Source: a virus
Taxonomy: Duplodnaviria > Caudoviricetes
Length of the DNA: 64,000 nucleotides
Virus record (IMG/VR): IMGVR_UViG_3300005614_000005
Span: 1-64,000 of that record
Direction: 5' to 3' (one strand)
Position numbers and translations under genes: made by a program. The notes under the pieces were generated by a model. That model searched no databases, had not been told where the DNA came from, and saw only the letters and a list, made by a program, of their open reading frames with translations. Shown here one piece after another: positions 9,289-51,946 of this stretch (its first letter is position 1; each line of letters opens with the position of its first letter).

Positions 9289-9750
9289 GTGAAGCCCCTC
9301 CTGTTCCTCGACGTGGACGGTGTGATCAACGCGGTCGACCGCACGCTCGACGTGGAGACCGTGGAGCGCAAGGGCTACGCGATCCGCTTTCAACCCTGGC
9401 TGCGCGAGTGCCTGCTCGAGCTGCACGAGCACTTCGAGGTCGTCTGGTGTACGACCTGGGAAGAGGACGCCGAGCCTAGCTTCGCCGAGGTGCTCGGCCT
9501 GCCCGGCACGCGCGACCGCGTGCAGTGGGCGACGCGCCGGATGAGCGGCATCTCCGGCGACAAGCTGCCCGCGCTCGAACGCTACGCCGGCGACCGGCCG
9601 TGGGCGTTCATCGATGACGACGCGGCGTGGGAACTGACGCGCCACGAGGTCACCGCCCCAACCTACCTGATCGTGGAACCCGACCCGAAGGTCGGCCTGA
9701 CCCGTGCCCACACCGACCAACTCATCACGTTCGCAAGGGAGGTATCATGA
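9289..9750 (+). CDS. HAD-superfamily phosphatase (RNA-repair HAD type)
   Basis: LFLDVDGV motif I, CTTW, DK, FIDDD motif IV, GLT. Confidence 0.8.
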   Translation: MKPLLFLDVDGVINAVDRTLDVETVERKGYAIRFQPWLRECLLELHEHFEVVWCTTWEEDAEPSFAEVLGLPGTRDRVQWATRRMSGISGDKLPALERYAGDRPWAFIDDDAAWELTRHEVTAPTYLIVEPDPKVGLTRAHTDQLITFAREVS

Positions 9751-17556: not shown

Positions 17557-17628
17557 TGCGGGTTGGTGCAAACGGCAGCACGCGCGGCTCTGGTCCGCGA
17601 GATCGAGGTTCGAGTCCTTGACCCGCAG
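17557..17628 (+). tRNA. tRNA-Gln(CTG), CCA not encoded
   Basis: Acceptor TGCGGGT/ACCCGCA; anticodon arm CGCGG-CTCTGGT-CCGCG; T-loop GGTTCGAGTCC; TACAAT upstream. Confidence 0.92.
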
Positions 17629-19708: not shown

Positions 19709-20230
19709 GTGCCCGCCGGAATCGTTTACGCACTCTGTGAGCCCACCACTGGCGAGGTTCGGTATGTAGGACAGACGGTGCGGCGAATGAAGGACCGGCT
19801 TCGTAGTCACGTCCGATCTTCACGAACACGTAACCACCACGTCTCGCTCTGGATACGAAGGTTGGGGCGTGCCCCAGAGTGGTTCACGTTGGAGCACTGC
19901 GCCACAAAGGCTGAGCTTGATGAGGCCGAGCGCTTCTGGATCTCGTGGTACCGCCGCAACACTCCGTTCCGGCTCACCAACCTGACAGCGGGTGGTGATG
20001 CAGGAACACTAGGGTGGGTGCCAACCGCTGAGACGCGGGAGAAGCTGCGCGCTGCAACAATCGCAAACTGCAACCGCGAGGGCTGCGCACGAGGAGGACG
20101 ATGGCACCGGGGACGCACGCTTTCTCCTCAGCATCGTGCAAGAATCTCTGCGGGACTTCGTGGCAAACCAAAGAGTCGTGCGCATCGCGAAGCTCTGAGC
20201 GCGGCACGCCTGAGGAAGTCACATGCCTGA
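19709..20230 (+). CDS. GIY-YIG homing endonuclease with NUMOD3-like tail
   Basis: GIVYAL..RYVGQT..RL.SH; E..WI; LTN...GG; ETREKL and HRARIS repeats. Confidence 0.85.
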   Translation: MPAGIVYALCEPTTGEVRYVGQTVRRMKDRLRSHVRSSRTRNHHVSLWIRRLGRAPEWFTLEHCATKAELDEAERFWISWYRRNTPFRLTNLTAGGDAGTLGWVPTAETREKLRAATIANCNREGCARGGRWHRGRTLSPQHRARISAGLRGKPKSRAHREALSAARLRKSHA

Positions 20231-21557
20231 GAGACCGAAGCGTGTCATATATGGTAAGATCGGGCGCAGTGTAATCCTCGATCCCGCGAAGTGGGGACCT
20301 GTCGGAGGGGATCAAGAGCCCAGCCACCTCCTCTACCTCCTCGCCGCACGGCATCCCGACGTGGAGTTCGTTGTCGGCGGACGCTACGCAGTCGCGAAGG
20401 GGCAGGAGCTCCCGCCGAACATCGTGCTGCCCGAGCTCCCGAAGATGCGGACCCGCAACCGTTACGTCAAGGGTGTCCGCCACTTCGACGGGTCGGTGAA
20501 CCCCTGGGAAGACCTGACCGCGATCCTGCGGCCGTACTTCTTGGAGGACGGGGCGAACGTCCAGGTGCTCATGTGGGCCGGTCAGATGGGGACCTCGAAC
20601 GTCCCGATCCCGCGCGTTGAGAATCGGGGTGAACTCACTGAGCCGCAAGACTCCTTCATGAACTACGTTGCGCCGATCACGCTGAACATCAACGCGTGGC
20701 GCGACGAGGATCCGATCGGCCGCGAGGAGGTGTGGGTCCAGTCGGACGTCCGCAACTACCTCAAGTGCCGCGAGCTCAAGTGGCCCCCACGCCACCCCAT
20801 CGTCTCGCAGTTCAACCAGACCCGCAAGGCAAAGCACGAGCGTTGGGGCGACACGCGAAACCCCGCCGAGCTGGGGTTCGACGCGGAGTGGGTACCCGAG
20901 GGTGGCGTCTGGCTCGCACCCCACCACTACGAGTACACGGGACTCGAGGTCATCGCGATCCCCGACGGCTGGGGACCCGAGCTCGACCACGGAGAGCGCG
21001 AGAGCTTCGGGATCCTCATCAACGAAAGCCGGTCGAACGTCGCGCTCGACCGGCCGTCGCTCGTGCGCGACTGGGTCGTCCCCCTGAAACCGTCGTGGAT
21101 CATCGGGAAGTGGCTGCCGAAGGGCGCCGAGATTGCCCGCATCGAGCTGCCGCAGCCCTGCCACCACTCCGAGGTCGGGAAGCTCGTCGGGTCCGTCCGG
21201 TCCACCTTCATGACGCCCGGTAGCGGCTCACGCTGGCCGACCATGAAGGCACACGAGTCCTTCCGCGTCGGGACCATCTGCTTCATGCACCCCGAGTACG
21301 ACGGGCAGGGCCACATCATCCCGACCCGCAAGCAGCTCGAAGCCGGCGCCTGGGAGACCGAGCCGAACCTTCGTGCGCTGGCCGAGTGGCTACGGCCCGC
21401 CACGCCGGAGGACTTGGCGGCGCGGGTCAGGGCCGTGGATGAAAGCCCCGAGACTTACGACTGGCTGCGCGCGGCGCAGCTCGACCTCGAGTCGCGGTAC
21501 ATCGCCGCGGAACGCGGACTCAGCACCATCGAGACGCGACTTGGGTTGCGGCAGTGA
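20223..21557 (+). CDS. GT-B glycosyltransferase resembling T4 DNA beta-glucosyltransferase
   Basis: C-terminal PTMKAHESFRVGTICFMHPEYDGQGHII...EDLAARVRAV...LRAAQ parallels the T4 BGT C-terminus as recalled (TLRVWET...IDEEFDTKHRII...ELIDRVNEL...Q). Confidence 0.65.
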   Translation: MPERPKRVIYGKIGRSVILDPAKWGPVGGDQEPSHLLYLLAARHPDVEFVVGGRYAVAKGQELPPNIVLPELPKMRTRNRYVKGVRHFDGSVNPWEDLTAILRPYFLEDGANVQVLMWAGQMGTSNVPIPRVENRGELTEPQDSFMNYVAPITLNINAWRDEDPIGREEVWVQSDVRNYLKCRELKWPPRHPIVSQFNQTRKAKHERWGDTRNPAELGFDAEWVPEGGVWLAPHHYEYTGLEVIAIPDGWGPELDHGERESFGILINESRSNVALDRPSLVRDWVVPLKPSWIIGKWLPKGAEIARIELPQPCHHSEVGKLVGSVRSTFMTPGSGSRWPTMKAHESFRVGTICFMHPEYDGQGHIIPTRKQLEAGAWETEPNLRALAEWLRPATPEDLAARVRAVDESPETYDWLRAAQLDLESRYIAAERGLSTIETRLGLRQ

Positions 21558-22478: not shown

Positions 22479-22664
22479 ACGGAGGTCACGTCAAGGAGCA
22501 CCACTTCATCCAGCTCTCACCCACCGAGGGCGGCGCACTGCGTGCGCTGCTCGAGGACGTCCGCGATGACGCGAAGGCGTGGCGCATCGGGGTCACCGAG
22601 CTGCAGGACGAAGTGGCGGAGGGTATCATCAAGGTACTGGAACTCGGAGATGGAGAGGAAGCTA

Positions 22665-23300
22665 ATGTCGGGTAGTGCACACATCTCCGCAGATCAGGCG
22701 CAGCACGACCTCCTGCTCGCGCTCGCGCGCCAGGCCACTGCCTCAGCTGAGGCGCTCGAGCGCGACAACGCCGACGAACGCGCCAGCGCCGACGAGGCCA
22801 AGGTCTTCACGTTCGTCGCTGAGATCGAGTCGTGCTCCGTCGGCGAGTGCATCGAGACACTCGGCGAATGGCACCGCAAGGAGCCAGGCAGCCCCATCAC
22901 CCTCGCCCTCAACTCCCCTGGCGGCAGCGTGTTCGACGGGCTGGCGCTCTTCGACTACATCCGATGGCTCGTGAGCGAGGGTCACGACGTCACCACGCTC
23001 GGCATCGGGCAGATCTTCTCGATGGGCGCGGTCGTCCTGCAGGCGGGCTCGCGCCGCGTCATGACCCCGAACTCGTGGCTCATGATCCATGAAGTCTCCA
23101 CCGTCGCGGCGGGTAAGGGCGCGCAGATCGGCGACGAGTCCAAGCTCGTCGGTCGACTCCAGTCGCAGCTTCTTGGGATCCTCGCCGAGCGGAGCGAGTT
23201 CTCGGCACGACAGGTGAAGACGCGGTGGACGCGGAAGGACTGGTATCTCTCGGCACAGGAGGCGCTCAAGCATGGCTTCATCGACTCGGTCCAAGAGTGA
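22665..23300 (+). CDS. ClpP-like protease (S14)
   Basis: LNSPGGSVFDG, FSMG (Ser), MIHE (His), KDWYLSAQEA...GFID. Confidence 0.88.
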   Translation: MSGSAHISADQAQHDLLLALARQATASAEALERDNADERASADEAKVFTFVAEIESCSVGECIETLGEWHRKEPGSPITLALNSPGGSVFDGLALFDYIRWLVSEGHDVTTLGIGQIFSMGAVVLQAGSRRVMTPNSWLMIHEVSTVAAGKGAQIGDESKLVGRLQSQLLGILAERSEFSARQVKTRWTRKDWYLSAQEALKHGFIDSVQE

Positions 23301-27208: not shown

Positions 27209-29311
27209 GTGCTTCCGCCCTCTGGATCGCGACCGCTCGCCAAGGCGGGGTGGAATGAGACCATTCATCCCCGAGCGGTACACGGCAAGTTCACGTTCAC
27301 CGCTAAACAGGTAGGCCGCGCAGCGCGCCACCCACACCAGGTCGCCGACCTGCTACCCGGCACACTCGTGCACGTCAAGCACGCGGGTAGCGGCCACGTG
27401 GTGCAGAGCTCGGGAAAGCACGTGACGGTCCGTCACACCGGCGGAGTCACCCGGACGCATCCACGGGTGCTCGTGAAGGTGGGAAAAACGAAGAAGCCAG
27501 CGCACGAAAGGAAGCTCAAGGGCCGGCGCGGTCGCATCGAGGGGCGGCAGCCGTACCGACTGCGCGCGTTTCGGATGCACAAACCCAAGGTGAACGGAAA
27601 GGTCATCAAGGAGGCGGACCACGAGGGCGTGATGGTCGCGCTCTACCCCGACGGGACGACCCGCGACGCACTCGCGCGGGACGGCGGCGAGCCCGCCGAC
27701 GACCTGCACGTTACCCTCTCATACCTGGGTAGCGCACACGAGCTCGACACGGGTCAGCGAGCGCAGCTCGTCCACATCGTGAACGACTGGGCGAAGGCGA
27801 CGCCCCCGCTCGACGCGAGGGTGGGTGGCGTGGGGCACTTCGATGAGGGAGGTTGCACCTACGCGAGCGTGGACTGCCCACACCTCAACGAGGCGCGTGC
27901 TGAGCTTCACTCACGACTGCGCGCGGCCGGGCTACCGGTCGCCGACGATCACGGGTTCACTCCACACATCACGCTTGCGTACGACGAGGATGAGGCAGAA
28001 GGGCTAGAGAGCGTCCCTGCGGCAAGCTTCAAGGTCGACGGGCCAACCGTCATGATCGGTGGCGAACGACACGAGATGAAGTTCTCGGGCGTCTCCAAGG
28101 GCGACGAATCCGCTGGGATGCGTGTCTCGGGTGATGGGCAAGCGACCCCGACCTCGCCGCTCACCTCGCGTGACTTCAACGGTCCCGGTGAGGCGCCGCT
28201 CACGATCCGGCAAGGTAGCTCGGGTCGGCGCCGACGCGCGCGGACAACCTGCCCGATCTGCGGGCAGAAGCTCAACGAAAACGGCCGCTGCCCCACCCAC
28301 GGCGTCGTGGCGCGGTTTCAGAAGGCGCGTGGCGACGTACACCAGTGGGAGACCTTGCTCGAGCAAGGTCACCTCAAGCAGGCGTTCGACACCGCGCGCG
28401 AACGGTTCGAGTCCGCAGCGCAACCCCACCTCCAGGAGCTCGCGCGCAAAGCGGTGCGCTCCGCACTCGGCCCAGGAGCTGAGGCGGCGCCGCCGGTGTC
28501 GGATGGTAACGGGCTCACGCGTGCGCTGGCTGGTGAGACGGATCGGCTTTACGAGGTGGGGCGCGACACGGTACTACTTGAGCTTCGGAACCAGCACCAC
28601 CGCGCCGGCACTGGACTGCGGCCCGTAGCTCCGGAAGATGTGACGCAACGTCGCGCACACGTCACGAGCGCAGCCGGTGTTGTGGCACGAAACATCGCGC
28701 GTGCCGCCGTCTCGGCAGCGGCAGCTGAGGCGTCGCGGCGTCCTCTCGTCCGCAAGGACAAGCCGCAGCCCCCGCCGAAACTCAGAGATGCCACGGGTCA
28801 CGACCGCTGTCAAGTCTGCCTCATGTTCGATGAAGGAAAGTGCTGGGGGTACGGCGAGTACAAGGTCCGTCCCGACCAGGTGTGCGACAGCTTCTCGCAG
28901 TCGAAGGTTCGCAAGGACGAAGAAGGTGACGAAGAAGAACTCGAACCCACCGCGGAAGAACGTCACAACCGGCTCTACGCCGCTGCGCTCGCCGCCGCCG
29001 AATCGGCGCTCCGCAACGGCGCGCTCCTGACCGCCGCCTACGCGATCAACTCGGGGCGCAGCGACGCCGCCGAAACGAACGCGGGGCAGATCGCACAGGC
29101 GATCTACACGTCCGTCATGGATGAGAACACCTGCGACGAGTGCGCCTCCGACAACGGCACCGCCGTGCAGGTCGGGTCCATCGAATACTACGACATGTCG
29201 CCGCCCAACGAAGACTGCGAGGGCGGGGACCGCTGTCGCTGCGTGTGGATCTACACCGTCAGCGACAGCCTCGCCGCGTTCGGGCTGCCCGAAGAAGGCG
29301 AAGAACCCTAG
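27209..29311 (+). CDS. Multidomain head protein: 2H phosphoesterase, Cys-rich modules and MuF-like C-terminus
   Basis: LHVTL and PHITL (2H); CPICG..CPTH; CQVC..CW..VCD; D.NTCDEC...PP..C.GGDRCRC (MuF/gp7-like). Confidence 0.8.
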   Translation: MLPPSGSRPLAKAGWNETIHPRAVHGKFTFTAKQVGRAARHPHQVADLLPGTLVHVKHAGSGHVVQSSGKHVTVRHTGGVTRTHPRVLVKVGKTKKPAHERKLKGRRGRIEGRQPYRLRAFRMHKPKVNGKVIKEADHEGVMVALYPDGTTRDALARDGGEPADDLHVTLSYLGSAHELDTGQRAQLVHIVNDWAKATPPLDARVGGVGHFDEGGCTYASVDCPHLNEARAELHSRLRAAGLPVADDHGFTPHITLAYDEDEAEGLESVPAASFKVDGPTVMIGGERHEMKFSGVSKGDESAGMRVSGDGQATPTSPLTSRDFNGPGEAPLTIRQGSSGRRRRARTTCPICGQKLNENGRCPTHGVVARFQKARGDVHQWETLLEQGHLKQAFDTARERFESAAQPHLQELARKAVRSALGPGAEAAPPVSDGNGLTRALAGETDRLYEVGRDTVLLELRNQHHRAGTGLRPVAPEDVTQRRAHVTSAAGVVARNIARAAVSAAAAEASRRPLVRKDKPQPPPKLRDATGHDRCQVCLMFDEGKCWGYGEYKVRPDQVCDSFSQSKVRKDEEGDEEELEPTAEERHNRLYAAALAAAESALRNGALLTAAYAINSGRSDAAETNAGQIAQAIYTSVMDENTCDECASDNGTAVQVGSIEYYDMSPPNEDCEGGDRCRCVWIYTVSDSLAAFGLPEEGEEP

Positions 29312-31245: not shown

Positions 31246-33756
31246 ATGTCAGTACCGTTCCTCGACAAGGACCTCCTCCGCCAAGAACTTCCGATCGCGT
31301 TTGTCTGCGAACAGTTGGGCATCCAGCTCAACGAGCAGCACGAGGCGATCTGCATCTGGCACGATGATCACACGCCGTCGTTTCGGATCTGGACGGACGA
31401 CCGCGGGGTGGAGAAGTTCGGGTGCTTTCCCTGCGGAGTCCAGGGCGACGTGTACGACCTGCTCCGCCGCGCGGAGGGGCTCTCGTTCACCGACTCGCTA
31501 CTCCGTGCGGAGCAGTTGCGCGAAGAGCTCCCCGAAGGGTACGCGTCGATGGTCACGCGCGCCGCGAAGGTGGAGTTCGAGCAGGAGGCGTGTGAACGGT
31601 TTGTCGCCGACGGACTGGCACGCGCGTCGAGCCCCGAATCGGAGGGCTGGATGTGCGTCGTCCTGGGCCTCGTTGACGAGCGACGTGACCTCGAGTACCG
31701 CCGCGCGGTGGACCGCTACGTCCGCGAACGGTGGCGGTGGGGCATCGACCACGCTGGCAACACGATCATGCCGCACTACGACGCGCTCGGTCGCCTGACC
31801 GGCGCGAAGGTGCGGGCGTTCGACGGGCGACGGTGGAGCTTCCCCGGCAGCGCGTTTCCCGCGCTCTACGGCGCGTGGGTGCAGCGGCACACCCGGTTCG
31901 TCCTCCTGACCGAGGGCGAGTCAGACGCTGCGTTCGCCACGATCCAGAACCCGCCCGTGGACGTACTGGGGCTGCCGGCGGGGGCCGGAAAGTTCCGCGA
32001 CGAGTGGGCACAACTGGAGGCCGACATCTACTTCCTCGCGTTCGACGCCGACGACGCGGGCGTGTCGGCGACGCGTACTTGGCTGGAGGCGCTCAACGGC
32101 CGCGACGTCCGCGTCTGCCGGCTTCCCCGCACCCACGACCTACGTTCGGCGCGGCCCGCCATCTTGGACCTGCTCCAGCACGCGCAGCGACCCTCGCTTA
32201 CGAACGGCCAGGTGCTCGTGGCGAACGGGCGCTTTGAACGCATCACGACCCAGCAGCCGAAGCCGCTCTGCAGTTGGTATCTCGAGCCGGTAGCTCGACT
32301 CGAAGCGATGGACGAGTCGGTGATGCCGGCGCTCGAGGTCAATGTTGTCCGTAATGAACAACCGACGTCCGACGTGATTACCCTCGCCGACCTCCACTCG
32401 GCGAGCAAGCTTCGGACGTGGGCCGCCACCCGCGCACTTGACTGCACCGCGTCTGATCCCGACGTGCAGCAGATGGCGTCGTACCTCCTCGCCCGGTCGT
32501 CGGTGCTGCCGGAGGTGTTCCAGACATCGCGTGTTGGAGTGCACGACGCGCCCGAGCGGTACAAGTACGCGGGCCGCACCGTCGTGACCCCCACGAACAG
32601 CATCGGCCGGCTCCCGTGGAAGTACGTCGGGTCAGGCGAGGCGGTCGGCCACGTTCATCTCGAAGATGACGGACCCTACGACTGGGGGTGGATCAGCGCG
32701 TTCCTCGCGCTCACCGACCGCTCCATCACCTCGCCGCTACTGGCCTGGCTCGTCGCCGCGACACGACGTAACGAGGTCGAGCAGTTTCCCCTCCTCTTCC
32801 TCGGCGGTAGCTCGGGATCAGGCAAGACGACCACCGCGCGCCTCGCCACGCAGCTCTTCGGGTCGACACTCTCCGCGAGCCTCGCCTCCATCACGCAGTT
32901 CGCACTCATCCGAATGCTCGCACTCACCACGACCGTGCCCGTGTTCGTGGACGAGTGGAGCCTTCAGTCTCGTGAGGACGCACGCGGAGCGATCCAGTCG
33001 GTCGTCACCAGCATCTACGAGGGTGGCGTCACCACGCGCGGTCGCGCCGACCTGTCGGTCGTGGAGTTCAAGCTCTCGTCGCCAATCCTCATCGCCGGCG
33101 AGGATTCCTTCCACCTCGACCGCGAGGCCGAGCGCATGGTCGCGCTCCGAATGCGTCACAACTCGCAGAACTACGACGCGCTCAAGGCGCTCGTCGGCCA
33201 GCCGTTGCAACGCTTCGCGCGCTGGTATTACGACTGGCTCGTCACCGCCGACAACCTCCCGCCGATGCCGTCCACCGCGCTGACGCGGCCCGAGTATAAC
33301 CGCGCGGTGCTGGATGCCGGGTGGATGACGTTGCAGCAGTTCGCCCGGTACGTCTCAGACCGCGACGCGCAGGTCATTCCCGACCTCGGTGAGCTCGACC
33401 TGACGCAGCTCGAGCAGGCCGACGACGACCGCGAGAACGAGTACGAGGCGTTCGTAATGGAGGGGCTAGCACTACGCGACGCAGAAGGACTCCCGCTCGT
33501 TTGGCCCGACGTACAGGGGCGCGGCACGTTCATCCGCTTCCGCCCGTTGACGTCGTGGGTGAACATGAACCGCGTGGACGTGGAGTTGGCTGGTCGCTCG
33601 CGGGCCATGCGCTCCTACTTCGCGGACCGGTACGTACTGACCGACGAACGCGTGAAAGCTCCGTTCAGTGACCGGCCCATCCGTGCCACGTTGGTTGCCG
33701 GCTTGCACGTAGCTCCGGAGCTAGAGTCGACCGAGATGGAGACCCCAGTCGAATGA
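31246..33756 (+). CDS. DNA primase-helicase (CHC2 Zn finger, TOPRIM, P-loop NTPase)
   Basis: CIWHDDHTPS..CFPC; TEGESD; FDADDAG; GSSGSGKTT; VFVDE. Confidence 0.9.
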   Translation: MSVPFLDKDLLRQELPIAFVCEQLGIQLNEQHEAICIWHDDHTPSFRIWTDDRGVEKFGCFPCGVQGDVYDLLRRAEGLSFTDSLLRAEQLREELPEGYASMVTRAAKVEFEQEACERFVADGLARASSPESEGWMCVVLGLVDERRDLEYRRAVDRYVRERWRWGIDHAGNTIMPHYDALGRLTGAKVRAFDGRRWSFPGSAFPALYGAWVQRHTRFVLLTEGESDAAFATIQNPPVDVLGLPAGAGKFRDEWAQLEADIYFLAFDADDAGVSATRTWLEALNGRDVRVCRLPRTHDLRSARPAILDLLQHAQRPSLTNGQVLVANGRFERITTQQPKPLCSWYLEPVARLEAMDESVMPALEVNVVRNEQPTSDVITLADLHSASKLRTWAATRALDCTASDPDVQQMASYLLARSSVLPEVFQTSRVGVHDAPERYKYAGRTVVTPTNSIGRLPWKYVGSGEAVGHVHLEDDGPYDWGWISAFLALTDRSITSPLLAWLVAATRRNEVEQFPLLFLGGSSGSGKTTTARLATQLFGSTLSASLASITQFALIRMLALTTTVPVFVDEWSLQSREDARGAIQSVVTSIYEGGVTTRGRADLSVVEFKLSSPILIAGEDSFHLDREAERMVALRMRHNSQNYDALKALVGQPLQRFARWYYDWLVTADNLPPMPSTALTRPEYNRAVLDAGWMTLQQFARYVSDRDAQVIPDLGELDLTQLEQADDDRENEYEAFVMEGLALRDAEGLPLVWPDVQGRGTFIRFRPLTSWVNMNRVDVELAGRSRAMRSYFADRYVLTDERVKAPFSDRPIRATLVAGLHVAPELESTEMETPVE

Positions 33757-34625
33757 GCGAAGATCACTCCTCGGGACTCTCCCGTTTCTTCACCCAGGCC
33801 TCCAAGCTACCGCTCCTCACCGCCACCCAAGAGGTCGAGCTAGCGGAACGTCGTGACAAGGGCGACAAGCGCGCCGAACAGAAGCTCGTGGAACACAACA
33901 TCCGCCTCGCGATCTCCATCGCGAAGCACTGGCGGAACCGCGGGCTCCCGCTCGAGGACCTCGTGCAAGAGGGGATGCTTGGACTCCACCGCGCCGCCAC
34001 CAAGTTTGACCCGAGCAAGGGCAACCGCTTCTCCACCTACGCGAGTTGGTGGGTCACCCACTTCGTCCAACGCGCCGTGCAGAACACAGGGCAGACGATC
34101 CGCACACCCGGTCACGTCACTGCGCGGCGCCTGACTCTCGAAAACCACCTGATGGAGTTTCCCGACACGTCGCACGAGGAGCTCGCGGTGATCGCGAAGT
34201 GCACGGTCGATGAGGTGCAGGAGGCGCTCGACGCGGGACGCATCTCAGCGTCGCTCGACTCACTACTGGACGACTCGCTCTCCGCGCACGAGATCCTCGC
34301 CGACCCAAACGCGGTGCGACCCGACGAGATCGTGGTTCAGGACCGTCGGGTGCGTGACGCGCTCGGTAAGCTCGGTGAGTTGGAACGGCGCGTCCTTGAA
34401 CTTCGCTTTGGCTTCGACGGCCCGGTTCGCAAGCGCGCGGACGTGGCGGAGATTCTCGAGGTCAGCCAGCGCTCCGTTCAGCACGCGCAGAAGGTCGCAC
34501 TCCTACGGCTGCGCGAGCTTCTCCACGACGAGCGAATGACCCCGATCACCAGCGCCGCGCTGCGCGCAGCCGCGCTGGACAAGACCGAGCCAATTTGCTC
34601 CCGACCGGAACCCGCACCATGCTGA
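33753..34625 (+). CDS. Sigma-70 family RNA polymerase sigma factor
   Basis: LVEHNIRL, DLVQEGMLGL, KFDPSKGNRFSTYASWW, region 4 ERRVLELRFG. Confidence 0.95.
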   Translation: MSEDHSSGLSRFFTQASKLPLLTATQEVELAERRDKGDKRAEQKLVEHNIRLAISIAKHWRNRGLPLEDLVQEGMLGLHRAATKFDPSKGNRFSTYASWWVTHFVQRAVQNTGQTIRTPGHVTARRLTLENHLMEFPDTSHEELAVIAKCTVDEVQEALDAGRISASLDSLLDDSLSAHEILADPNAVRPDEIVVQDRRVRDALGKLGELERRVLELRFGFDGPVRKRADVAEILEVSQRSVQHAQKVALLRLRELLHDERMTPITSAALRAAALDKTEPICSRPEPAPC

Positions 34626-35548
34626 TCATCATCGAGGGACTTGACCGTACCGGAAAGTCAACGCTCGCGGGCTTCATCGCGATGAAAAACAAGCCAACGG
34701 CGTTGCTCCACTTCAGCAAGCCCGAGAAGCACCCACTCTTCGAGTACGTCGAGCCGCTCCTCGCGTACGACCCGTGCGCACCCGGGAACGTGGTCCTCGA
34801 CCGCGGCCACCTGGGTGAGAGCGTTTGGCCGAGCGTGTTCGGGCGGGGGTCAGAGCTTGACGAGCCGACGCGGCGTTGGATCGAGCTCTTCCTGCTGTCG
34901 CGCGGCGCCGTACTCGTCCACGCGAAACGCGACCTGCAGGAGCTGATCGACGCTTGCGCGGCTGACGACGAGCCAATCCAGGGCGAGCAGATCGTGGACG
35001 CAAACGCACACTTCCGCGTGGCGCTCTCCGAATCGGTCCTGCCCCAGTTTCCCTTCTGCCACTCATCACCCGACCGTGAACTGCAGATCCTCGACATCCT
35101 GGCCCAGGGGATGCTCGACCAGATGCGCGCCGCGCTGATCACGCAGGTCACCTACGAGTGGATCGGCAACCCCCGCCCACACACCCTCCTCGTGGGGGAC
35201 CAGGGTAACCTCGGTCCCGGCCGCCGTGCTGACTGGCCGCTCCCGTTCGTGCCGTTCGGCGGCACGTCGGGCCACTTCCTCTTCGATGAGTTGGGGATCG
35301 GCGACCGGTGGAGGCACGTCGCGGTCGTGAACTCGCGGCGGCCAGACGGCGCCGTCGAGGACCTGCCTCGGCTTCACGCGTTGATGGGCTACCCTCGGGT
35401 CGTGACCCTCGGCGAGAAGGCGCACCACGTCGCGTCAGACCTCGGTGTCGAGCACGCGCAGGTGCCCCACCCGCAGTACGTGCGCCGCTTTGAGCGCCGG
35501 CGCGGTCGTGGCTACTACGCGGGGCTCATCTTGGAGGCAACATCGTGA
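34619..35548 (+). CDS. dNMP (thymidylate-type) kinase fused to a UDG-superfamily-like domain
   Basis: IEGLDRTGKST and LDRGHLGE; C-terminal VGDQ..PF..SG..L, VVN, VTLGEKA, PHP. Confidence 0.8.
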   Translation: MLIIIEGLDRTGKSTLAGFIAMKNKPTALLHFSKPEKHPLFEYVEPLLAYDPCAPGNVVLDRGHLGESVWPSVFGRGSELDEPTRRWIELFLLSRGAVLVHAKRDLQELIDACAADDEPIQGEQIVDANAHFRVALSESVLPQFPFCHSSPDRELQILDILAQGMLDQMRAALITQVTYEWIGNPRPHTLLVGDQGNLGPGRRADWPLPFVPFGGTSGHFLFDELGIGDRWRHVAVVNSRRPDGAVEDLPRLHALMGYPRVVTLGEKAHHVASDLGVEHAQVPHPQYVRRFERRRGRGYYAGLILEATS

Positions 35549-36387
35549 ACATCGAAATCGCAGACCTGCGGGGCGGCTACATCACCCTCGTGGAAGCAAT
35601 CCAGCAGCACGGCAAGCCCGTCGCGCCGCGCGGGATGCCGACGCTCGAGCTCCTGAACGCGACGGTCACACTGCACGACCCGAGTGACGCGATGCCCGTC
35701 GGGATTGGGAGGAAACCGAACCTCGCGATCGGCGCGGCCGAGGCGCTTCAGCTCATCGGCGGGTTCAGCGACCCCGAGATGATGGCGTCGATCACCAAGA
35801 ACTTCGAACGCTTCTTCGACGGCGGCGTGCTCTCCGGCGCCTACGGTCCACGTATCCGGACCCAGCTCGAGCACGTGGTCGAGCGCCTCAAGCAGGACCC
35901 CGACACCCGCCAGGCCATCGCGGTCATCTGGGATCCACTCCACGACGGGATCGGGTCGGTGCCTCGTGACCTGCCCTGCACCCTCGTGCTGCACTTCGTG
36001 ATCCGCGACGGGAAGCTCTCGCTCTGCACCACGATGCGCAGTAACGACGTGTGGTGGGGTGTCGGATACGACTTCTTCCAGTTCACCCAGCTCCAACTCT
36101 CGGTGGCACGGATCTTGAAAGTCAAGGCTGGCCCCTACTACCACCACGCCACCTCGCTGCACATGTACGAGCGCGACTTCCCCGCTGCCGAGGAGCTTCA
36201 CCAGCCCGAGTCACGCTCGGCGCCCGATCCGCGTCCACGCGGCCTGAAAGCGTCGTCCGTCGCGGAACTGCAAGAGAACGCGCGCCGGATCTGGAACCTG
36301 GAGTCGGTAATCGGCGAGGGCTTCTTGGAGCACTGGTACCGCGAGCAGCTCCGGCCCCACGTGCGTGTGAGTCGTGTGCAAGCCTAA
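35545..36387 (+). CDS. Thymidylate-synthase-family enzyme, dCMP-type (probable dCMP hydroxymethylase)
   Basis: YGPRI, DTRQA, LPC (catalytic), MRSNDVWWGVGYD (Asp at the ThyA Asn position), SLHMY. Confidence 0.85.
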   Translation: MNIEIADLRGGYITLVEAIQQHGKPVAPRGMPTLELLNATVTLHDPSDAMPVGIGRKPNLAIGAAEALQLIGGFSDPEMMASITKNFERFFDGGVLSGAYGPRIRTQLEHVVERLKQDPDTRQAIAVIWDPLHDGIGSVPRDLPCTLVLHFVIRDGKLSLCTTMRSNDVWWGVGYDFFQFTQLQLSVARILKVKAGPYYHHATSLHMYERDFPAAEELHQPESRSAPDPRPRGLKASSVAELQENARRIWNLESVIGEGFLEHWYREQLRPHVRVSRVQA

Positions 36388-39323: not shown

Positions 39324-41099
39324 GTGCCGTATGTAGAGCGTTGGGGCGACGACCGGATCGTCATCCACTCCGAGTATCGCGAACGTGAACTTGTGAAGCA
39401 GGTGCCCGGCGCGAAGTGGGACGACGCCACGAAAGTGTGGTGGTGTCCGTTGTCGTGGGCCGCGTGCATGCAGCTTCGCGGCGTGTTCGGCGACCTACTT
39501 CAGATCGGGGAGCAGCTCGTCACGTGGGCGCAGGGCGAGCTCGACGGCCGCGTGTCGCCGTGTCTCGTCCTGCGCGAAGCTGAGGACGCTGAGCTGCCCG
39601 CGGGCGTAGTGCCCGCCACGCTTCCGAAAACTGGCGACACGTTCCGCGGGAAACTCGTGGAGGCGGATTGGGATCTTGAGCCGCGGCAGCGCGCCGGCGT
39701 GCGGTTTCTCGCCACCGCGCGCCGCGCAGCGCTCTGTGACGGAATGGGTTCCGGCAAGACGGTGCAGACGATCATCGCGCTCGAGATGCTCGCCGCCGAA
39801 GGGAAGGACCCGTACCCGGCGGTCGTTGTCTGCCCGAACTCGATGAAGGCCACGTGGTGGGAGGAGTTCGACCTCTGGGCGCCACATCGCAAGGTGACCG
39901 TCATTCGCGGTGGCGCCGCCGCGCGCCGCAAGCTCCTCGCCGAGCCCGCCGACGTGTACGTGTTCAACTGGGAGGGGCTCCGCAGCCACACCCGCCTCGC
40001 GGGCTACGGGTTCATCCGCCTCAGCGAAGACGAGAAAACGGACAAGGAGCTCAACCTCATGCCGCTCCGTTCGTTCGTCGCTGACGAGGCGCACCGCGCG
40101 AAGGACCCTAAATCGAAGCAGACCCGCGCCGCGTGGGCCATCGCGCGGAAGTGCGAGTTCCGCTTCGCGCTGACCGGCACCCCGCTCGCGAACTCGCCCG
40201 AGGACACCTGGGCAATCATGCACATGCTCGAACCCCGCGAGTGGCCGTCACGCACGCAGTTCGTGGACCGCTACGCGTTGCAGTCGTGGAGCAACTTCGG
40301 GTTCATGCAAGTGACGGGGATCCGCGGCGAGAACCGCGACGAGTTCCTGCGAATCCTCGATCCGCGCTTCCTCCGGCGTCCGACGAAGATCGTCGTGCCC
40401 GACCTGCTCGACAAGCTACCTCCGCAGGTGCGTCACGTCGAACTGGTGCCGAAGCAGCGCAAGGCCTATGAACAACTTCGCAAGGAGCTTCTCGCCGAGC
40501 TTGACTCCGGCGTCCTGATGGCCACCAACCCGCTGACACGCATGACGCGACTCATTCAGCTCGCGGCCGCGTACGGAGAGGTCGAGAACGGGGTGGACAT
40601 GAAGCTCTCCGAGCCGAGCGCGAAGCTCGACGCGCTCGATGAGTTCTTGGAGGACGTCGGACCCGAAGAACAGGTCGTCGTCTTCGCCGAGTCGCGGCAG
40701 CTCATCGAACTCGCGGCCAAGCGCCTCGAGAAGCACAAGGTTCCGTTCGGCCTGATCACCGGCGCGCAGCAGGACTTCGAGCGTCAGCGATCCGTCCAAG
40801 ACTTCCAGGCGGGCAACCTCAGGGTCATTCTCGCCACGCTCGGCGCCGGCGGCGAGGGGTTGACCCTGACAGCCGCGCGGCACGTCGTCTTCCTGCAGAG
40901 GTCGTTCTCGTTGGTGAAGAACAGGCAGGCCGAGGACCGAGTCTACCGCAAGGGGCAGACCCGTGAGGTCCAGCGTACCGACATCGTCGCCGTCAACACC
41001 ATCGAGGAGCACGTCCTCCTCGTCGGCGAGGACAAGGAGGAACGTCTCGAGGAAATCTGCCGCGATGAGGAGGTGCTTCGCAGATGGCTTACCAAGTAG
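39324..41099 (+). CDS. SNF2-family helicase
   Basis: DGMGSGKT, DEAH, LTGTP, GEGLTLT, QAEDRVYRKGQ. Confidence 0.93.
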   Translation: MPYVERWGDDRIVIHSEYRERELVKQVPGAKWDDATKVWWCPLSWAACMQLRGVFGDLLQIGEQLVTWAQGELDGRVSPCLVLREAEDAELPAGVVPATLPKTGDTFRGKLVEADWDLEPRQRAGVRFLATARRAALCDGMGSGKTVQTIIALEMLAAEGKDPYPAVVVCPNSMKATWWEEFDLWAPHRKVTVIRGGAAARRKLLAEPADVYVFNWEGLRSHTRLAGYGFIRLSEDEKTDKELNLMPLRSFVADEAHRAKDPKSKQTRAAWAIARKCEFRFALTGTPLANSPEDTWAIMHMLEPREWPSRTQFVDRYALQSWSNFGFMQVTGIRGENRDEFLRILDPRFLRRPTKIVVPDLLDKLPPQVRHVELVPKQRKAYEQLRKELLAELDSGVLMATNPLTRMTRLIQLAAAYGEVENGVDMKLSEPSAKLDALDEFLEDVGPEEQVVVFAESRQLIELAAKRLEKHKVPFGLITGAQQDFERQRSVQDFQAGNLRVILATLGAGGEGLTLTAARHVVFLQRSFSLVKNRQAEDRVYRKGQTREVQRTDIVAVNTIEEHVLLVGEDKEERLEEICRDEEVLRRWLTK

Positions 41100-41725
41100 G
41101 TCCGGTCGCACACAACGCGCACCGTCGCTCGCGGAAGCCGAAGGTCGGCGTCGACATCGACGGAGTCCTGTACCCATTCGACCTCGCGGCACGGACGCTG
41201 TTGAAGTTGCGCGGCGTGGACGTAACCGTAGCGGATGACGCACAGTATTGGAATCACACCGCGGAGCTCGTTGGTCACGAGGCGTGGGAGTGGATCTGGG
41301 GCCCCGGCCGCCGACAGGTCTTCGAGGCGGCGCCTCCGTACCCCGGCGCGATCAAGGCCATGCGCCGTTTGGAACAGGACGTGCGGATCGTGTACGTTAC
41401 CCACCGCCCACTCGACGTGGCGCACGTCACGCTGCGCTGGCTCGCCTACCACAAGCTCAACCCCCACGCCGTCATCCACGCATCCGGCGAGGAGAAGTCG
41501 CAGTACGCGACCGACTGCATCGCCTTCATCGAGGACCGCGCCGAAAACGCCCGCGAGATCGCAGACGCCAGCGACGCAACCGTCTGGGTCCCGTGCCGGA
41601 CGTGGAACTCGGACGTGGGTATCCTCCCTGAGGATGCAGTACGTCCCAACCTACGAACATTCAATGACTGGAAGGAGGTGACGGAGTGGATCAAACAAGC
41701 AGTCCAGACGGAAGCGACATCCTGA
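41084..41725 (+). CDS. HAD 5'(3')-deoxyribonucleotidase-like protein
   Basis: VDIDGVL, VTHR, FIEDR, WN. Confidence 0.8.
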   Translation: MAYQVGPVAHNAHRRSRKPKVGVDIDGVLYPFDLAARTLLKLRGVDVTVADDAQYWNHTAELVGHEAWEWIWGPGRRQVFEAAPPYPGAIKAMRRLEQDVRIVYVTHRPLDVAHVTLRWLAYHKLNPHAVIHASGEEKSQYATDCIAFIEDRAENAREIADASDATVWVPCRTWNSDVGILPEDAVRPNLRTFNDWKEVTEWIKQAVQTEATS

Positions 41726-42207: not shown

Positions 42208-42861
42208 ATGGCTCCTGAGTTTCAAGGCTTTCCGAAAATCCCCCGCCTCCACCGTGGCCTCACGATCACCGAGAAGATCGACGGCACGAACGCGGCGGTA
42301 GGGGTAGAAAAGCTGGACAAGGTGCAGGAGGGCACACACCCGCTTGGAACTCTCGTCACCCTCGCGCGTCCCTACCCGGAGGAGGGCGAGATAGACTCGT
42401 ACCTCGTCTACGCGCAGTCGCGGACGCGGATCATCGTTCCCGGCGACGACAACTACGGGTTCGCGTTGTGGGTTTCGCAACACGCAACGGAGCTCGCGGA
42501 GCTCGGCCCGGGCGTGCACTTCGGCGAGTGGTGGGGCGTGGGGATCAACCGCGCCTACGACCTCCACGAGCGCCGCTTCTCCCTCTTCAACACCTCCCGC
42601 TGGAGCGAGGAGCGCCCCGCGTGCTGTGGCGTCGTGCCGGTGCTCGGCGAACTCGACAACTTCCACTCGCCCACCGTCGAAGAGATCGGCCTCGCCCTCT
42701 CGCAGAGTGGGTCCGTCGCCGCACCTGGGTTCAAGCGTCCCGAGGGCGTCGTGGTCTTCCACAAGGCCGCGAACTTCTGCTTCAAGTGGACCTTCAACGG
42801 CGACGGCCACAAGTCTGAGAGCAGCAAGCGCACTCGGCGCGGAAACCGCGGCGGGTCGTGA
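42208..42861 (+). CDS. ATP-dependent RNA ligase (Rnl2-like adenylation domain)
   Basis: FPKIPR, TEKIDGTN, QSR, FGEWWG, PEGVV. Confidence 0.85.
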   Translation: MAPEFQGFPKIPRLHRGLTITEKIDGTNAAVGVEKLDKVQEGTHPLGTLVTLARPYPEEGEIDSYLVYAQSRTRIIVPGDDNYGFALWVSQHATELAELGPGVHFGEWWGVGINRAYDLHERRFSLFNTSRWSEERPACCGVVPVLGELDNFHSPTVEEIGLALSQSGSVAAPGFKRPEGVVVFHKAANFCFKWTFNGDGHKSESSKRTRRGNRGGS

Positions 42862-45491: not shown

Positions 45492-45890
45492 ATGCGCGAC
45501 CTGCTCGCACGGCAGCGGAGGCTTCAAGTCGAAGCCTTCGCTGTCGACCCGCACGAGTTGACTGGTGAGGACCGCGTCGAGTACGTTCGGATGAACGTCC
45601 TTGCGGTCGTAGACGAGGCGATGGAGATGCTCCACCACGTCAACGGCTGGAAGAACTGGCAGACCGAGCGCTCGCGCGCCGGCGAGATCGCGGATCTTCA
45701 AGAGTACATCGGCGAGGGCGTCGATCTCCTGCACTTTGTGGCCAATTTGCTGAACGTTGCAGGAGTCGATGACCAAGAACTCGACGCGCTCTTCGCGAAA
45801 AAGCAGCGCGTGAACGCACAGCGGCAGGCCCTCGGGTACGAGGGTCACGGCGACGACTTCGCCGCGGCGCACCCGCAGGTGATGGCGTGA
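45492..45890 (+). CDS. Dimeric all-alpha dUTPase/dCTPase
   Basis: Q..LQ, DEAMEM, WKNW, EGVDLLHF, K..VN.QRQ..GY. Confidence 0.85.
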   Translation: MRDLLARQRRLQVEAFAVDPHELTGEDRVEYVRMNVLAVVDEAMEMLHHVNGWKNWQTERSRAGEIADLQEYIGEGVDLLHFVANLLNVAGVDDQELDALFAKKQRVNAQRQALGYEGHGDDFAAAHPQVMA

Positions 45891-46324
45891 AGCTCGCGGC
45901 ATCCGAGCGCCCGTGCAGCGGCTGCGCGCACTCCGCGAGTGGGATTCCGTATCCTGGGCATCCGTCGGGTGAGCGACCTTGCTGCTTCTGCGTCCGCAAC
46001 CCCGAACTGGCGCGCACCAGCGACGTCTGCCGCGACAGCGACGGTAACGGGGTCTGGTACGACGGCAAGACACCCGCGTACAAGACGCCGATGGACAACT
46101 ACATCGCGACCGACCGTCTCCAGCAAGAGCGGCTCTTCGCCGTGCTTGGTGCCATCGAGCGTGGAGAACTGACGGTCAAGCCGCGGCAAACACTCGCTGA
46201 GTTCTACGGGGTAGATTGTGATGTAGGTATGGGCGACCCCAAGACCATGTGTTGTGAGGGCGGCCCGTTTCCCGGCGGCCACAGCGGTGGGTGCATTCTT
46301 CTCGTGGGGGTTTCCATATCATGA
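45887..46324 (+). CDS. Cys-rich hypothetical protein
   Basis: RPCSGC and RPCCFC; overlaps both neighbours. Confidence 0.55.
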   Translation: MKLAASERPCSGCAHSASGIPYPGHPSGERPCCFCVRNPELARTSDVCRDSDGNGVWYDGKTPAYKTPMDNYIATDRLQQERLFAVLGAIERGELTVKPRQTLAEFYGVDCDVGMGDPKTMCCEGGPFPGGHSGGCILLVGVSIS

Positions 46325-47601
46325 CTCATCCGTTCGTTGACGTGCAAGGTCTCGCCGGCGCCTGGACGCTTGGCACGGTGCAGGCGGGCTTCGAGTTGAA
46401 GCACCGCGTGTCGCTGCCCGGCGGCTTCGGCGACGCCGCCATCGACGCGAACCGGCACCTCGTCGGCGACGGGTGGGCGCAGGAGACCGGCGACCCGGTC
46501 GAAGCCTGGACGCCTCAGGAGGGCGTCGCCTACATCTGCGGCACGCCGCCGTGCTCGGGCTTCTCGCTACTGAACAGCGCGAAGGGATCCAACGCGCGCG
46601 GTCCCGAGTCCAGCATCAACAACTGCATGAAGGAGCTCGTCAAGTACGCCGGTCAGTGCACCGGCTCCGACGGGCGTCCCGGCCCTCAGATCGTCAGCTT
46701 CGAGAGCGTGCAGGGCGCCTACACGCAGGGCCGCGGGCTCATGCAGTACCTGCGCGACATGCTCAACGAGACCTCCGGCTCGCACTACAGCCTGTCTCAC
46801 GTCCTGATGTCGGGCGCGTCCGTGGGCAACGCGCAGATGCGGCACCGCTTCTACGTCGTCTTCCACCGGATCCCGTTCGGCGTGGACCAGCCTCAGGAAC
46901 GGAAGGTCGTCACCTACGCGGACGCCATCGAGGATCTGATCGGCGGCACACTCCAGTGGGAGCCGCAGCCGTACCCCACGCACGACACGCTACCCGACGG
47001 CAGGCCCGACCTCTCGCCGTACGCCACCCCACTTCGCTCGTCGTCTGGCAACTTCGACGCGCACGTGACCATCGACCACGGCCGCTCCGCCTCCGTCATC
47101 AAAGAGGTGTGGGACGTCTGGAAGCCAGGTCAGAGCCTGCCCGAAGCGCTGCTCGCCGCGGGCCTCCGTCCTCCGACGCTCGAAAAAAGCTTCGTGGAGA
47201 ACTTCGAAGGGACCGGCAAGCCCGGCTACAAGGGCTGGAGCTGGCCCGTCAAGGTGCGCCCGGACCGACCGGGGTACGTGCTGACGGGCGGGGGTATCCA
47301 CGGGTTCGTCCACTGGGCCGAGCCTCGTCTCCTCTCAGCGCGCGAGTGCTCGCGTCTGATGGGCTACCCTGACGACTGGACCTGGCCTACCAACTCCGTC
47401 AACCAGGCAAGCGCCTGGATCGGCAAGTGCTGCCCCGTCACGTCAGGACGATGGATCTCATCGTTCGTACGGCGTGCGCTGGACGGCGATCCCGCGTCAC
47501 CGCTCGAGCAGATCGGGCCGCGTGAGTTCTATTACAACTGCACCCTGGCCTACAAGAAGTGGCCTGGTGGCGCCGTCCCCAAGCGGGTAAGATCGAGGTA
47601 G
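46321..47601 (+). CDS. DNA cytosine-C5-methyltransferase homolog with degenerate SAM-binding motifs
   Basis: Motif IV GTPPCSGFS, VI FESVQG, VIII QMRHR, IX RECSRLMGYPDD; motif I DVQGLAGAW and X IGKCCP are atypical. Confidence 0.85.
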   Translation: MTHPFVDVQGLAGAWTLGTVQAGFELKHRVSLPGGFGDAAIDANRHLVGDGWAQETGDPVEAWTPQEGVAYICGTPPCSGFSLLNSAKGSNARGPESSINNCMKELVKYAGQCTGSDGRPGPQIVSFESVQGAYTQGRGLMQYLRDMLNETSGSHYSLSHVLMSGASVGNAQMRHRFYVVFHRIPFGVDQPQERKVVTYADAIEDLIGGTLQWEPQPYPTHDTLPDGRPDLSPYATPLRSSSGNFDAHVTIDHGRSASVIKEVWDVWKPGQSLPEALLAAGLRPPTLEKSFVENFEGTGKPGYKGWSWPVKVRPDRPGYVLTGGGIHGFVHWAEPRLLSARECSRLMGYPDDWTWPTNSVNQASAWIGKCCPVTSGRWISSFVRRALDGDPASPLEQIGPREFYYNCTLAYKKWPGGAVPKRVRSR

Positions 47602-51013: not shown

Positions 51014-51946
51014 ATGCGCATTTCTTCGCCCCAGTCCCGGCTAGCCAAGCGGCTCGCCGCTGAGGAGGCTGAGGACGCCATCGAGAAGAGCGGTCTACCC
51101 AAGGCCGACCCCGACACGCCGTGGGACGGCGCCGACGCGCGGAAGAAGATGCTCGCCGCCGTGGGCGGCAACCTCGACGACGCAGCGAAACAGAAAGCTT
51201 ACGCCCGCGGCTTCATGGCCGTGAGTGGGGACCCGAAAAATCTCGGGTCGTACAAACTGCCGTTCGCCACGATCATCGACGGCAAGCTGACCGCCGTGCC
51301 CAAGGGCGAAGCCGCCGCGCGCGGTGCCCTCAAAGGCGCACGAGGTGGCGTCGACCTACCCGCCGGCCAGCGCAGCGCCGCCGAGAAACAGGCCGGGGTC
51401 AAGAAGACGCTGGAGGAGCGACTCGAGAACGTGGAGGCCGAGCTCACGAAGATGCGCACGCTCGCAGCCTCGGACCCCGAGGTCGCGGGTGAGGACGAGG
51501 TGCCCGCCGCCATCGCCTTCACGAAGTCCGACGAGGAGCAGCGCTACACGTTCGGACCGTTGTACACGCCGATGGAGAAGGACGCGCACGACGAGTTCGC
51601 CACCGCGCCCACCCTCCAGAAGTCGATCTGGAACTTCGCGCGGGCCGGCGACCGCCGGATCCGCAAGCAGCACGACCCCGACAACGTGATCGGCGAGGTG
51701 GTCGAGCAGGTCGTCTGGCCGTACCCGGTCGAGGTCGAGCTGACCGTTCCGGGGCAGGGCGTCCGAAAGGCTTGCCTCCCAGCTAACACCGCGTTTATGG
51801 GTGTCGTCTGGAGCGACGAGGCGTGGCCCCTCGTGAAGAGCGGGGCTATCTCCGGTTACAGCATGGGAGGGCGTGCCGTCAGAGTGCGCACAGACGACAT
51901 TCTCGCGCCCATGAACAAGTCCGAAGGGGTTTCCCCCAGCGAGTAG
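51014..51946 (+). CDS. XkdF-like prohead protease with N-terminal accessory domain
   Basis: EQRYTFGPLYTP..DAH, QH, W..VKSG.ISGYSMGG; N-terminal WD..YKLP..DGKL..VP..GARGGV. Confidence 0.8.
   Translation: MRISSPQSRLAKRLAAEEAEDAIEKSGLPKADPDTPWDGADARKKMLAAVGGNLDDAAKQKAYARGFMAVSGDPKNLGSYKLPFATIIDGKLTAVPKGEAAARGALKGARGGVDLPAGQRSAAEKQAGVKKTLEERLENVEAELTKMRTLAASDPEVAGEDEVPAAIAFTKSDEEQRYTFGPLYTPMEKDAHDEFATAPTLQKSIWNFARAGDRRIRKQHDPDNVIGEVVEQVVWPYPVEVELTVPGQGVRKACLPANTAFMGVVWSDEAWPLVKSGAISGYSMGGRAVRVRTDDILAPMNKSEGVSPSE

Follow-up and report, generated by a model that had tools for sequence, protein, structure and literature searches.

The gene and its protein

The gene described here is located at 46321–47601 (+) in a 64-kb window, which is the stretch from 1 to 64,000 of the IMG/VR record IMGVR_UViG_3300005614_000005. 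It codes for a 426-residue protein with the fold of the DNA cytosine C5-methyltransferases, in which the catalytic residues are kept and the residues of the S-adenosylmethionine (SAM) site are changed. We refer to this C5-methyltransferase look-alike as MTL. The whole record, from an uncultured phage, is complete, with a length of 93,167 bp and direct terminal repeats, and the window is its first part. The G+C content is 65%, and the genes are directed along the + strand up to about 52 kb and along the − strand past that point. No relative at the nucleotide level was found by blastn among 50,697 phage records.

The start codon of MTL is the ATG at 46321, and the stop codon of the upstream open reading frame (ORF) overlaps with it as ATGA. 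A G-rich stretch (GGGGG) is located about 11 nt before the start, and the same start Met is used by the homologues of MTL. The stop codon is located at 47599–47601, and the next gene begins 3 nt further on. The nearest cultured relatives of the protein show about 34% identity, and all of them are annotated just as 'methyltransferase'. They are found in the Gordonia phages Forza, GodonK, GMA2, Sixama, Phendrix, Mareelih, BlueNGold and Boopy, the Micrococcus phage Kurnik and the Actinomycetia phage DSL-LC01. A literature search found no characterisation of the MTL family, which is not covered in the MetaGPA and Thanatos papers either.

The assignment of the fold is based on Pfam, an AF2 model, Foldseek and the homologues. 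MTL matches PF00145 (4e-16) with 59.7 bits against a gathering cut-off of 22, and the match covers only the positions 63–314 of the 324-position profile. As the match begins at position 63, the part of MTL with motifs I–III is not recognised by Pfam. Against NCBIfam TIGR00675 (dcm), MTL scores 34 bits, the cut-off being 100.65. The AF2 model, calculated with 33 homologues, shows the two-domain C5-methyltransferase fold with a pLDDT of 89.7 and a pTM of 0.90. Foldseek with this model returned only C5-methyltransferases (probability 1.00, E from 2e-17 to 3e-13), namely ZMET2, DNMT1, MET1, M.HaeIII, the prophage protein 3g7u and CmoX (8yf3). When the MTL family was aligned with Escherichia coli Dcm by hhalign, motifs IX–X alone were aligned, and the N-terminal cofactor half was unmatched. 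Thus, the register of motifs I and II given below is based on a match of the sequences without gaps and on the secondary structure of the AF2 model.

Conserved and altered residues

Conservation was analysed using 140 relatives of MTL, which show 28–64% identity to it (median 35%). The catalytic core is invariant. In motif IV (GTPPCSGFS, residues 74–82; 46540–46566, +), the catalytic Cys78 is present in 134 of 134 sequences. Glu128 of motif VI (FESVQ, residues 127–131; 46699–46713, +) is present in 140 of 140, and the same count applies to each of Arg174 and Arg176 in motif VIII (QMRHR, residues 172–176; 46834–46848, +). Motif IX (RLLSARECSRLMGYPD, residues 336–351; 47326–47373, +) is aligned with the motifs of M.HaeIII, MET1 and Dcm, and its residues Arg336, Arg341, Glu342, Arg345, Pro350 and Asp351 are nearly invariant. 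An earlier note on this DNA had described motifs IV, VI, VIII and IX as intact, and all the strings quoted there were found in their places. MTL also keeps Asn44, a conserved residue at which helix B ends.

The cofactor motifs are deviant, as the earlier note had also read for motifs I and X. Motif I, whose canonical form is D-L-F-x-G-x-G-G-F, is DVQGLAGAW in MTL (residues 7–15; 46339–46365, +), with a gapless register from Asp7 to Gly18. The column of the canonical Phe is occupied by Gln (72), His (16), Glu (11) or Tyr (9), and by Phe in only 2 of 130 sequences. The column of the first Gly always has a large residue (Phe 75, Leu 49, Tyr 5) and never Gly. In the motif II region (KHRVSLPGGFG, residues 27–37; 46399–46431, +), no acidic residue is present. 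The AF2 strand of residues 24–31 ends at Ser31, which occupies the place of the ribose-binding Glu in MTL, and the insertion PGGFG then follows. Within this insertion, Phe36 is conserved in 123 and Gly37 in 133 of 134 sequences. Across the wider family, the motif II column is Glu in 81 and Ser in 29 of 134 sequences. These counts indicate that the loss of the acid, which the earlier note had found not evident, is a trait of this clade and not of the whole family. Since Glu is so frequent there, that the SAM pocket has been rebuilt can only be inferred from the sequence.

Motif X is GKCCP (residues 368–372; 47422–47436, +), in which Lys369 replaces the Asn of GN(A/S)V. According to three independent alignments, with M.HaeIII, plant MET1 and E. 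coli Dcm, Lys369 falls in the column of the motif X Asn. This column is Lys in 136 and Arg in 1 of 139 sequences, and Asn is never found. Two more conserved changes were missing from the earlier note. Motif VI is changed from ENV to ESV (Ser129 in 135 of 140, Asn never), and motif IV from PCQ to PCS (Ser79 in 122 of 135). The residue preceding PPC is Thr in MTL (TPPC), and most of the wider family has NPPC. The equivalents of Gln82, Asn120 and Asn304 of M.HhaI encircle the transferred methyl group. For Asn304, the motif X Asn, this role is confirmed in the CmoX structure paper (PMC12783734).

The MTL family

A word-index search gave 196 homologues of MTL. With an exhaustive search, 734 cluster representatives were obtained at E ≤ 1e-3, and 135 when the limit was E ≤ 1e-30. 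The changes in motifs I and X are thus fixed across a large family and are not peculiar to one sequence, so that decay of the gene is excluded. When 185,579 prokaryote species, represented by one genome each, were scanned with a pattern, no relative was detected, and the family accordingly looks virus-only. One homologue, P0122 (752 residues), has a Hint/LAGLIDADG intein in the PPC motif, right before the catalytic Cys; this Cys would serve as the +1 residue of the intein. Inteins typically occupy functionally critical sites.

Several relatives are fused to other domains. The helical domain of 5-hydroxymethyldeoxyuridine (5-hmdU) DNA kinases is fused to an MTL-like domain in P0137 and in an ORF of contig L092, and these two proteins are only 39% identical to each other. 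A scan of viral contigs for the context of P0137 gave no match; a metagenome scan gave one 5.7-kb contig with a second kinase–MTL fusion and little flank. FkbM-type methyltransferase domains are fused in five relatives, and UbiG-like ones in three. PPC, ESV and Gly-Lys are retained in every fused form. In phage DSL-LC01, a separate class I SAM methyltransferase is encoded directly upstream of MTL, and the genes for a glycosyltransferase and a UDP-galactopyranose mutase precede it at a distance of a few genes. The fused or adjacent partners of MTL all act on hydroxyl groups, and that a genuine SAM domain exists separately fits an MTL domain that does not use SAM for methyl transfer. In DSL-LC01, a glycosyltransferase, a UDP-galactopyranose mutase, a MazG protein, the class I SAM methyltransferase and MTL are encoded in one run (L069 1911–8245), which hints at a galactofuranose-type, O-methylated decoration of the DNA.

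Genomic neighbourhood

The neighbourhoods of 65 MTL loci were compared. IMG/VR records supplied 61 of them, and the regions of Forza and Kurnik were included as well. In the window, a nucleotide pyrophosphatase resembling MazG and the dimeric dUTPases is encoded at 45492–45890 (+) (PF08761, 2e-9; phrog_173, phrog_18650), and it is a candidate dCTPase. A MazG homologue is located within 10 kb of MTL in 48 of the 65 loci, mostly directly upstream. In the most distant loci (24–29% identity), a MazG-type (PRA-PH) gene is directly upstream of MTL in L063 and L064, and a thymidylate synthase (TS) homologue is directly downstream of MTL in L063–L065. The earlier note had MTL following a dUTPase/dCTPase. 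The pyrophosphatase gene is indeed close upstream, but a Cys-rich ORF of 145 residues (CSGC...CCFC...CC; 45887–46324, +) intervenes, which is translationally coupled to MTL via the ATGA. This ORF belongs to no family in Pfam, PHROGs or NCBIfam and has no tblastn match in the 65 loci. Its slot is filled by non-homologous small ORFs in Forza, GodonK and Kurnik.

The TS homologue of this phage is encoded at 35545–36387 (+). Its best solved relative is the CMP 5-hydroxymethylase MilA (1e-24), and the best true TS is matched at about 1e-13. In its motif RSND-x7-D, Asp is located at the position of ThyA Asn177, which is the mark of a cytosine substrate, and Asp169 is kept. The protein is a probable dCMP hydroxymethylase. 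A 5-hydroxycytosine synthase was also considered and rejected, as Asp169 is retained and the change D169N, which marks 5-hydroxy-dCMP synthases (PMC13326640), is absent. Every copy read from related phages and contigs (43 of 43) has Asp at the Asn177 position and retains Asp169. One TS homologue per genome is present in 16 of 16 MTL-encoding viral genomes that are at least 90% complete, in four of four cultured phages and in this phage, so that the co-occurrence proposed earlier for MTL and dCMP-type TS homologues is borne out. The earlier note had also placed the two genes in one operon. They are on the same strand, but the TS gene is 10 kb upstream, and our promoter and terminator scans stayed at chance level.

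The TS gene is abutted by a gene for a P-loop protein resembling deoxynucleoside monophosphate (dNMP) kinases with an extra C-terminal domain (34595–35548, +; weak dTMP-kinase matches), and this pair is found again in nine related loci. Among its neighbours in the Atlas, PF02223 is assigned to 45% of the members, and in one cluster the uracil-DNA glycosylase (UDG) family PF03167 is assigned to 12%. The P-loop domain spans about residues 9–180, and the C-terminal domain that follows is virus-only. The gene directly upstream of the pair (33753–34625, +) codes for a factor of the sigma-70 family, in which regions 1.2, 2 and 4 are present.

A GT-B glycosyltransferase resembling the T4 beta-glucosyltransferase (BGT) is encoded at 20223–21557 (+). 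It has no Pfam or PHROG match and was assigned from Atlas features and structure. The feature score is 0.96 to clusters in which 97–100% of members carry PF09198, and the TM-scores are 0.54–0.57 by the query and 0.66–0.69 by the cluster model. This gene is 25 kb from the MazG–MTL pair here and directly upstream of the pair in about 20 related contigs. A full-length match is present in 22 of the 65 loci, mostly between DUF669 and MazG–MTL. Co-occurrence of MTL with BGT-like genes, which the earlier note had suggested as a check, is found in part. Glycosyltransferases are present, but their families vary; the BGT-like family is found in 7 of the 16 near-complete genomes, and in others there are glycosyltransferases of the families GT2 and GT4 or with different annotations. 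The place of the gene after the terminase in L004 had suggested a portal protein. This assignment was rejected, as the Atlas search leads to BGT-like glycosyltransferases and the true portal and major capsid genes are located beyond the window on the other strand (L066 10137–14273, −).

The order polA–RuvC–SNF2–PDDEXK–AAA_24–DUF669–MazG–MTL recurs in the lineage. The low-GC phages of 32–36 kb and the L063–L065 group have clearly separate arrangements.

Other genes of the window were noted. A lone tRNA-Gln (CUG) gene is located at 17557–17628 (+). Two genes resemble head proteases, of the ClpP and XkdF types (22542–23300 and 51014–51946, +). A 700-residue protein encoded at 27209–29311 (+) has a 2H/LigT phosphoesterase domain and a weakly MuF-like C-terminus. 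A candidate RNA-repair set is encoded at 9289–9750, 41084–41725 and 42208–42861 (all +). Its first member has the HAD domain of the 'Swiss Army Knife' RNA repair proteins, the second resembles polynucleotide kinases and the third resembles RNA ligases.

Comparison with known systems

MTL shares with M.HhaI, M.HaeIII and E. coli Dcm the two-domain fold, the Pro-Cys, the Glu, the Arg-x-Arg, motif IX and Asn44, and it passes the Pfam gathering score. It differs from them in motif I, which is Q-G-(L/F)-A-G-(A/G), and in the Ser of motif II, the ESV and PCS sequences and the Lys of motif X. Unlike them, it has no restriction partner, is always accompanied by a dCMP-type TS homologue and is located below the NCBIfam dcm cut-off. 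An ordinary orphan Dcm is unlikely, as the changes in motifs I and X are conserved and MTL co-occurs with dCMP-type TS homologues and glycosyltransferases.

The DNA cytosine C5-carboxymethyltransferase SpCmoX of Synechococcus phage S-B43 (PDB 8YF3) is a phage-encoded enzyme of the same fold (PMC12783734). Two features are common to MTL and CmoX, namely a motif IV of the form PPC-S and the replacement of the motif X Asn by a basic residue. In CmoX Arg350 and in the engineered M.MpeI N374K, such a residue leads to acceptance of carboxy-SAM (PMC12783734). The product of CmoX is thought to be a handle for hypermodification. MTL has Lys instead of Arg350, which is functionally comparable to M.MpeI N374K, and the residue before PPC in motif IV is Thr in MTL and Ser in CmoX (TPPC and SPPC), with Ser next in both. 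The adenine and ribose contacts of CmoX (Phe25, Glu47, Phe48 and Asp69) have no counterpart in the MTL clade. The relation in sequence is remote; tblastn at 1e-5 against the 50,697 phage records gave 16 records and no Synechococcus phage. The partners of MTL belong to a 5-hydroxymethylcytosine (5hmC) pathway, whereas those of CmoX are CmoA and CmoY. For CmoX, 5615 candidates are given, with 4257 CmoA genes among their contigs. No match to CmoA (TIGR00740) was found in this complete genome or in 30 other MTL genomes and contigs, 16 of which are at least 90% complete; the actinobacterial control, Corynebacterium glutamicum, gave no match in this search either. The carboxy-SAM route was therefore rejected as the leading reading.

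The T4 5hmC pathway comprises gp56, gp42, gp1 and the alpha- and beta-glucosyltransferases. The window has counterparts in the pyrophosphatase, the Asp-type TS homologue, the dNMP-kinase-like protein and the BGT-like protein. It differs from T4 in that MTL is a constant member of the set and the replication genes are of the polA type. We know of no T4 component with the C5-methyltransferase fold. In the phage C5-MT/TET (5mYOX) pathway, a gene of this fold is likewise clustered with glycosyltransferases, and some of its C5-MT clades have the conserved Cys, divergent motifs and undetectable methylation (PMC8256090). The source of 5hmC in that pathway differs from the nucleotide-level TS homologue found here, and this complete genome has no match to TET/JBP (PF12851) at E ≤ 0.1. 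MTL is thus not part of a C5-MT/TET route, and this route was rejected.

The thymidine hypermodification systems follow the same logic of a C5-hydroxymethyl handle on DNA (PMC8989533), and two relatives of MTL are fused to the helical domain of the 5-hmdU DNA kinases. Those systems, however, act on 5-hydroxymethyluracil, and among the genes scanned this phage has no such kinase domain. To our knowledge, no enzyme of the C5-methyltransferase fold is used in them.

Proposed function and alternatives

Taken together, MTL probably performs an undescribed step of DNA modification, as far as can be judged from the sequence. Whether it is a natural SAM-independent enzyme of the DNA pyrimidine C5, acting on 5hmC or with a non-SAM one-carbon donor and writing an undescribed base, we consider evenly balanced. 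More specifically, and tentatively, we favour the reading that MTL would act post-replicatively on 5hmC DNA by Cys–C6 chemistry and without methyl transfer from SAM. The phage would replace C with 5hmC at the nucleotide level by the MazG-type dCTPase, the Asp-type TS homologue and the dNMP kinase, and the BGT-like glycosyltransferase would then decorate 5hmC. MTL would flip the 5hmC of a short DNA motif into its pocket, and Cys78 would add to C6 with the assistance of Glu128 and Arg174/Arg176. Lys369, located where the motif X Asn faces the SAM methyl group, and the smaller Ser79 and Ser129 would accommodate and polarise the C5-CH2OH group. The leaving group would then be water, or phosphate in the relatives with a fused kinase domain, and a co-substrate other than SAM, bound by MTL, would be captured. 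At specific sites, this would yield 5-(X-methyl)cytosine as a further-modified base. C5-methyltransferases without SAM reportedly add aldehydes to C, strip CH2OH from 5hmC and couple thiols to 5hmC, according to work of the Klimasauskas laboratory.

This reading is favoured by the invariance of the catalytic core and by the location of the fixed changes, which fall on residues contacting SAM or around the transferred group. As an Asp-type TS homologue is present in every near-complete MTL genome, the C5 position should already be occupied when MTL meets its substrate. The tight MazG–MTL linkage, the hydroxyl-acting fusion domains and the glycosyltransferases of varying families beside or near MTL point in the same direction. 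The idea of the earlier note that a side reaction has become the main job is thus partly supported by conservation and co-occurrence. Its version as a 5hmC eraser seems the least likely, since the phage invests in a replacement pathway.

Several points weigh against the favoured reading. Much of the synteny reflects the common descent of one phage lineage, so that the linkage counts are not independent. By its sequence MTL may still bind SAM; the wider family often keeps the Glu of motif II, Phe36 and Gly37 are nearly invariant, and an adenosine site could still form. The fusions with O-methyltransferases fit at least as well an enzyme that makes the hydroxymethyl group or only presents it. 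Complete replacement of C with 5hmC in this phage is itself inferred, and, as far as we know, T4-type phages manage without an MTL-like enzyme.

MTL could instead be a cytosine hydroxymethylase at the DNA level, which takes a C5 one-carbon unit from a non-SAM donor (methylene-tetrahydrofolate or formaldehyde), possibly through an iminium of Lys369, and makes 5hmC. We consider this unlikely, although the O-methyltransferase fusions and the MazG–MTL linkage suit it no less well than the favoured reading. Its targets would be cytosines that escape replacement, or host-derived C, and its product would be glycosylated, phosphorylated or O-methylated by the neighbours or fused domains. The same conserved catalytic and pocket residues would serve it, the kinase, FkbM-type and UbiG-like fusions and the adjacent glycosyltransferases would find their substrate in the product, and the tightest partner, the candidate dCTPase, would also work against unmodified cytosine. 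Addition of aldehydes to C by C5-methyltransferases is known in vitro. However, a self-sufficient route should sometimes stand alone, and MTL is never found without the TS homologue, a probable nucleotide-level hydroxymethylase, in the near-complete genomes; for this reason the action on 5hmC is preferred. An enzyme limited to a motif cannot deal with every stray C, we know of no SAM-fold enzyme that uses folate, and the scanned ORFs of this phage include no gene related to folate. Somewhat less likely again is an AdoMet-type alkyltransferase, whose pocket, though unusual, would take SAM, or an analogue such as carboxy-SAM in which the transferable group is anionic. It would act on unsubstituted cytosines in the DNA of the host, in early phage DNA or at sites where replacement is incomplete. 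The basic residue of motif X, as in CmoX Arg350 and M.MpeI N374K (PMC12783734), the PPC-S sequence common to CmoX, the rank of CmoX 8yf3 among the best solved relatives, the Glu of motif II in the wider family and the invariant Phe-Gly are consistent with it. On the other hand, CmoA is absent from this genome and the 30 others, with the C. glutamicum control likewise matchless, and the MTL clade has no counterparts of CmoX Phe25 and Glu47. The C5 position should already bear CH2OH, and the score is far under the dcm cut-off.

Two other readings explain less than these. It is improbable that MTL is a weapon against unmodified DNA, in which the Cys adds to C6 of host cytosines and leads to C-to-U deamination or lasting adducts, while phage DNA with 5hmC or glycosyl-5hmC is spared. 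C5-methyltransferases are said to deaminate C to U without SAM, according to a study of M.SssI. The linkage with a candidate dCTPase, which excludes C, is in line with such a role, and so are the nuclease-rich surroundings, including a PD-(D/E)XK nuclease and an Mre11-like phosphoesterase directly downstream, and the possibly UDG-like domain of the kinase beside the TS gene. The deamination is, however, a slow side reaction in known enzymes, and the invariant Lys369, the Ser substitutions and the fusions of the kinase and O-methyltransferase types would be left unexplained. More improbable still is a non-catalytic base-flipping reader or scaffold, which would present 5hmC or C to partner enzymes or regulate transcription or packaging. 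It would account for the divergent cofactor half and for the fused or adjacent enzymes that need access to the C5 substituent. Against this, the Cys, the Glu and both Arg residues are invariant across the 140 sequences down to 28% identity, and one member has an intein at the catalytic Cys; these features argue for catalysis.

Implications

Should the enzymes of the MTL family function without SAM, they would be the first ones in nature with the C5-methyltransferase fold whose main reaction is something other than alkyl transfer from a cofactor of the AdoMet type, and the in vitro side reactions of SAM-deprived methyltransferases would have become a main activity. The family may also provide a tool for the mapping of epigenomes, by which 5hmC is derivatised in a sequence-specific manner. 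The Gordonia phages Forza, GodonK, GMA2, Sixama and Phendrix and the Micrococcus phage Kurnik are cultured and have MTL in the same context. For the phages themselves, the T4-type 5hmC pathway of the textbooks would gain an extra step, and a new cytosine hypermodification would probably be present in widespread phages of high-GC and other bacteria. Such an enzyme would bear on the escape of phages from restriction, type IV enzymes, DNA glycosylases and CRISPR.

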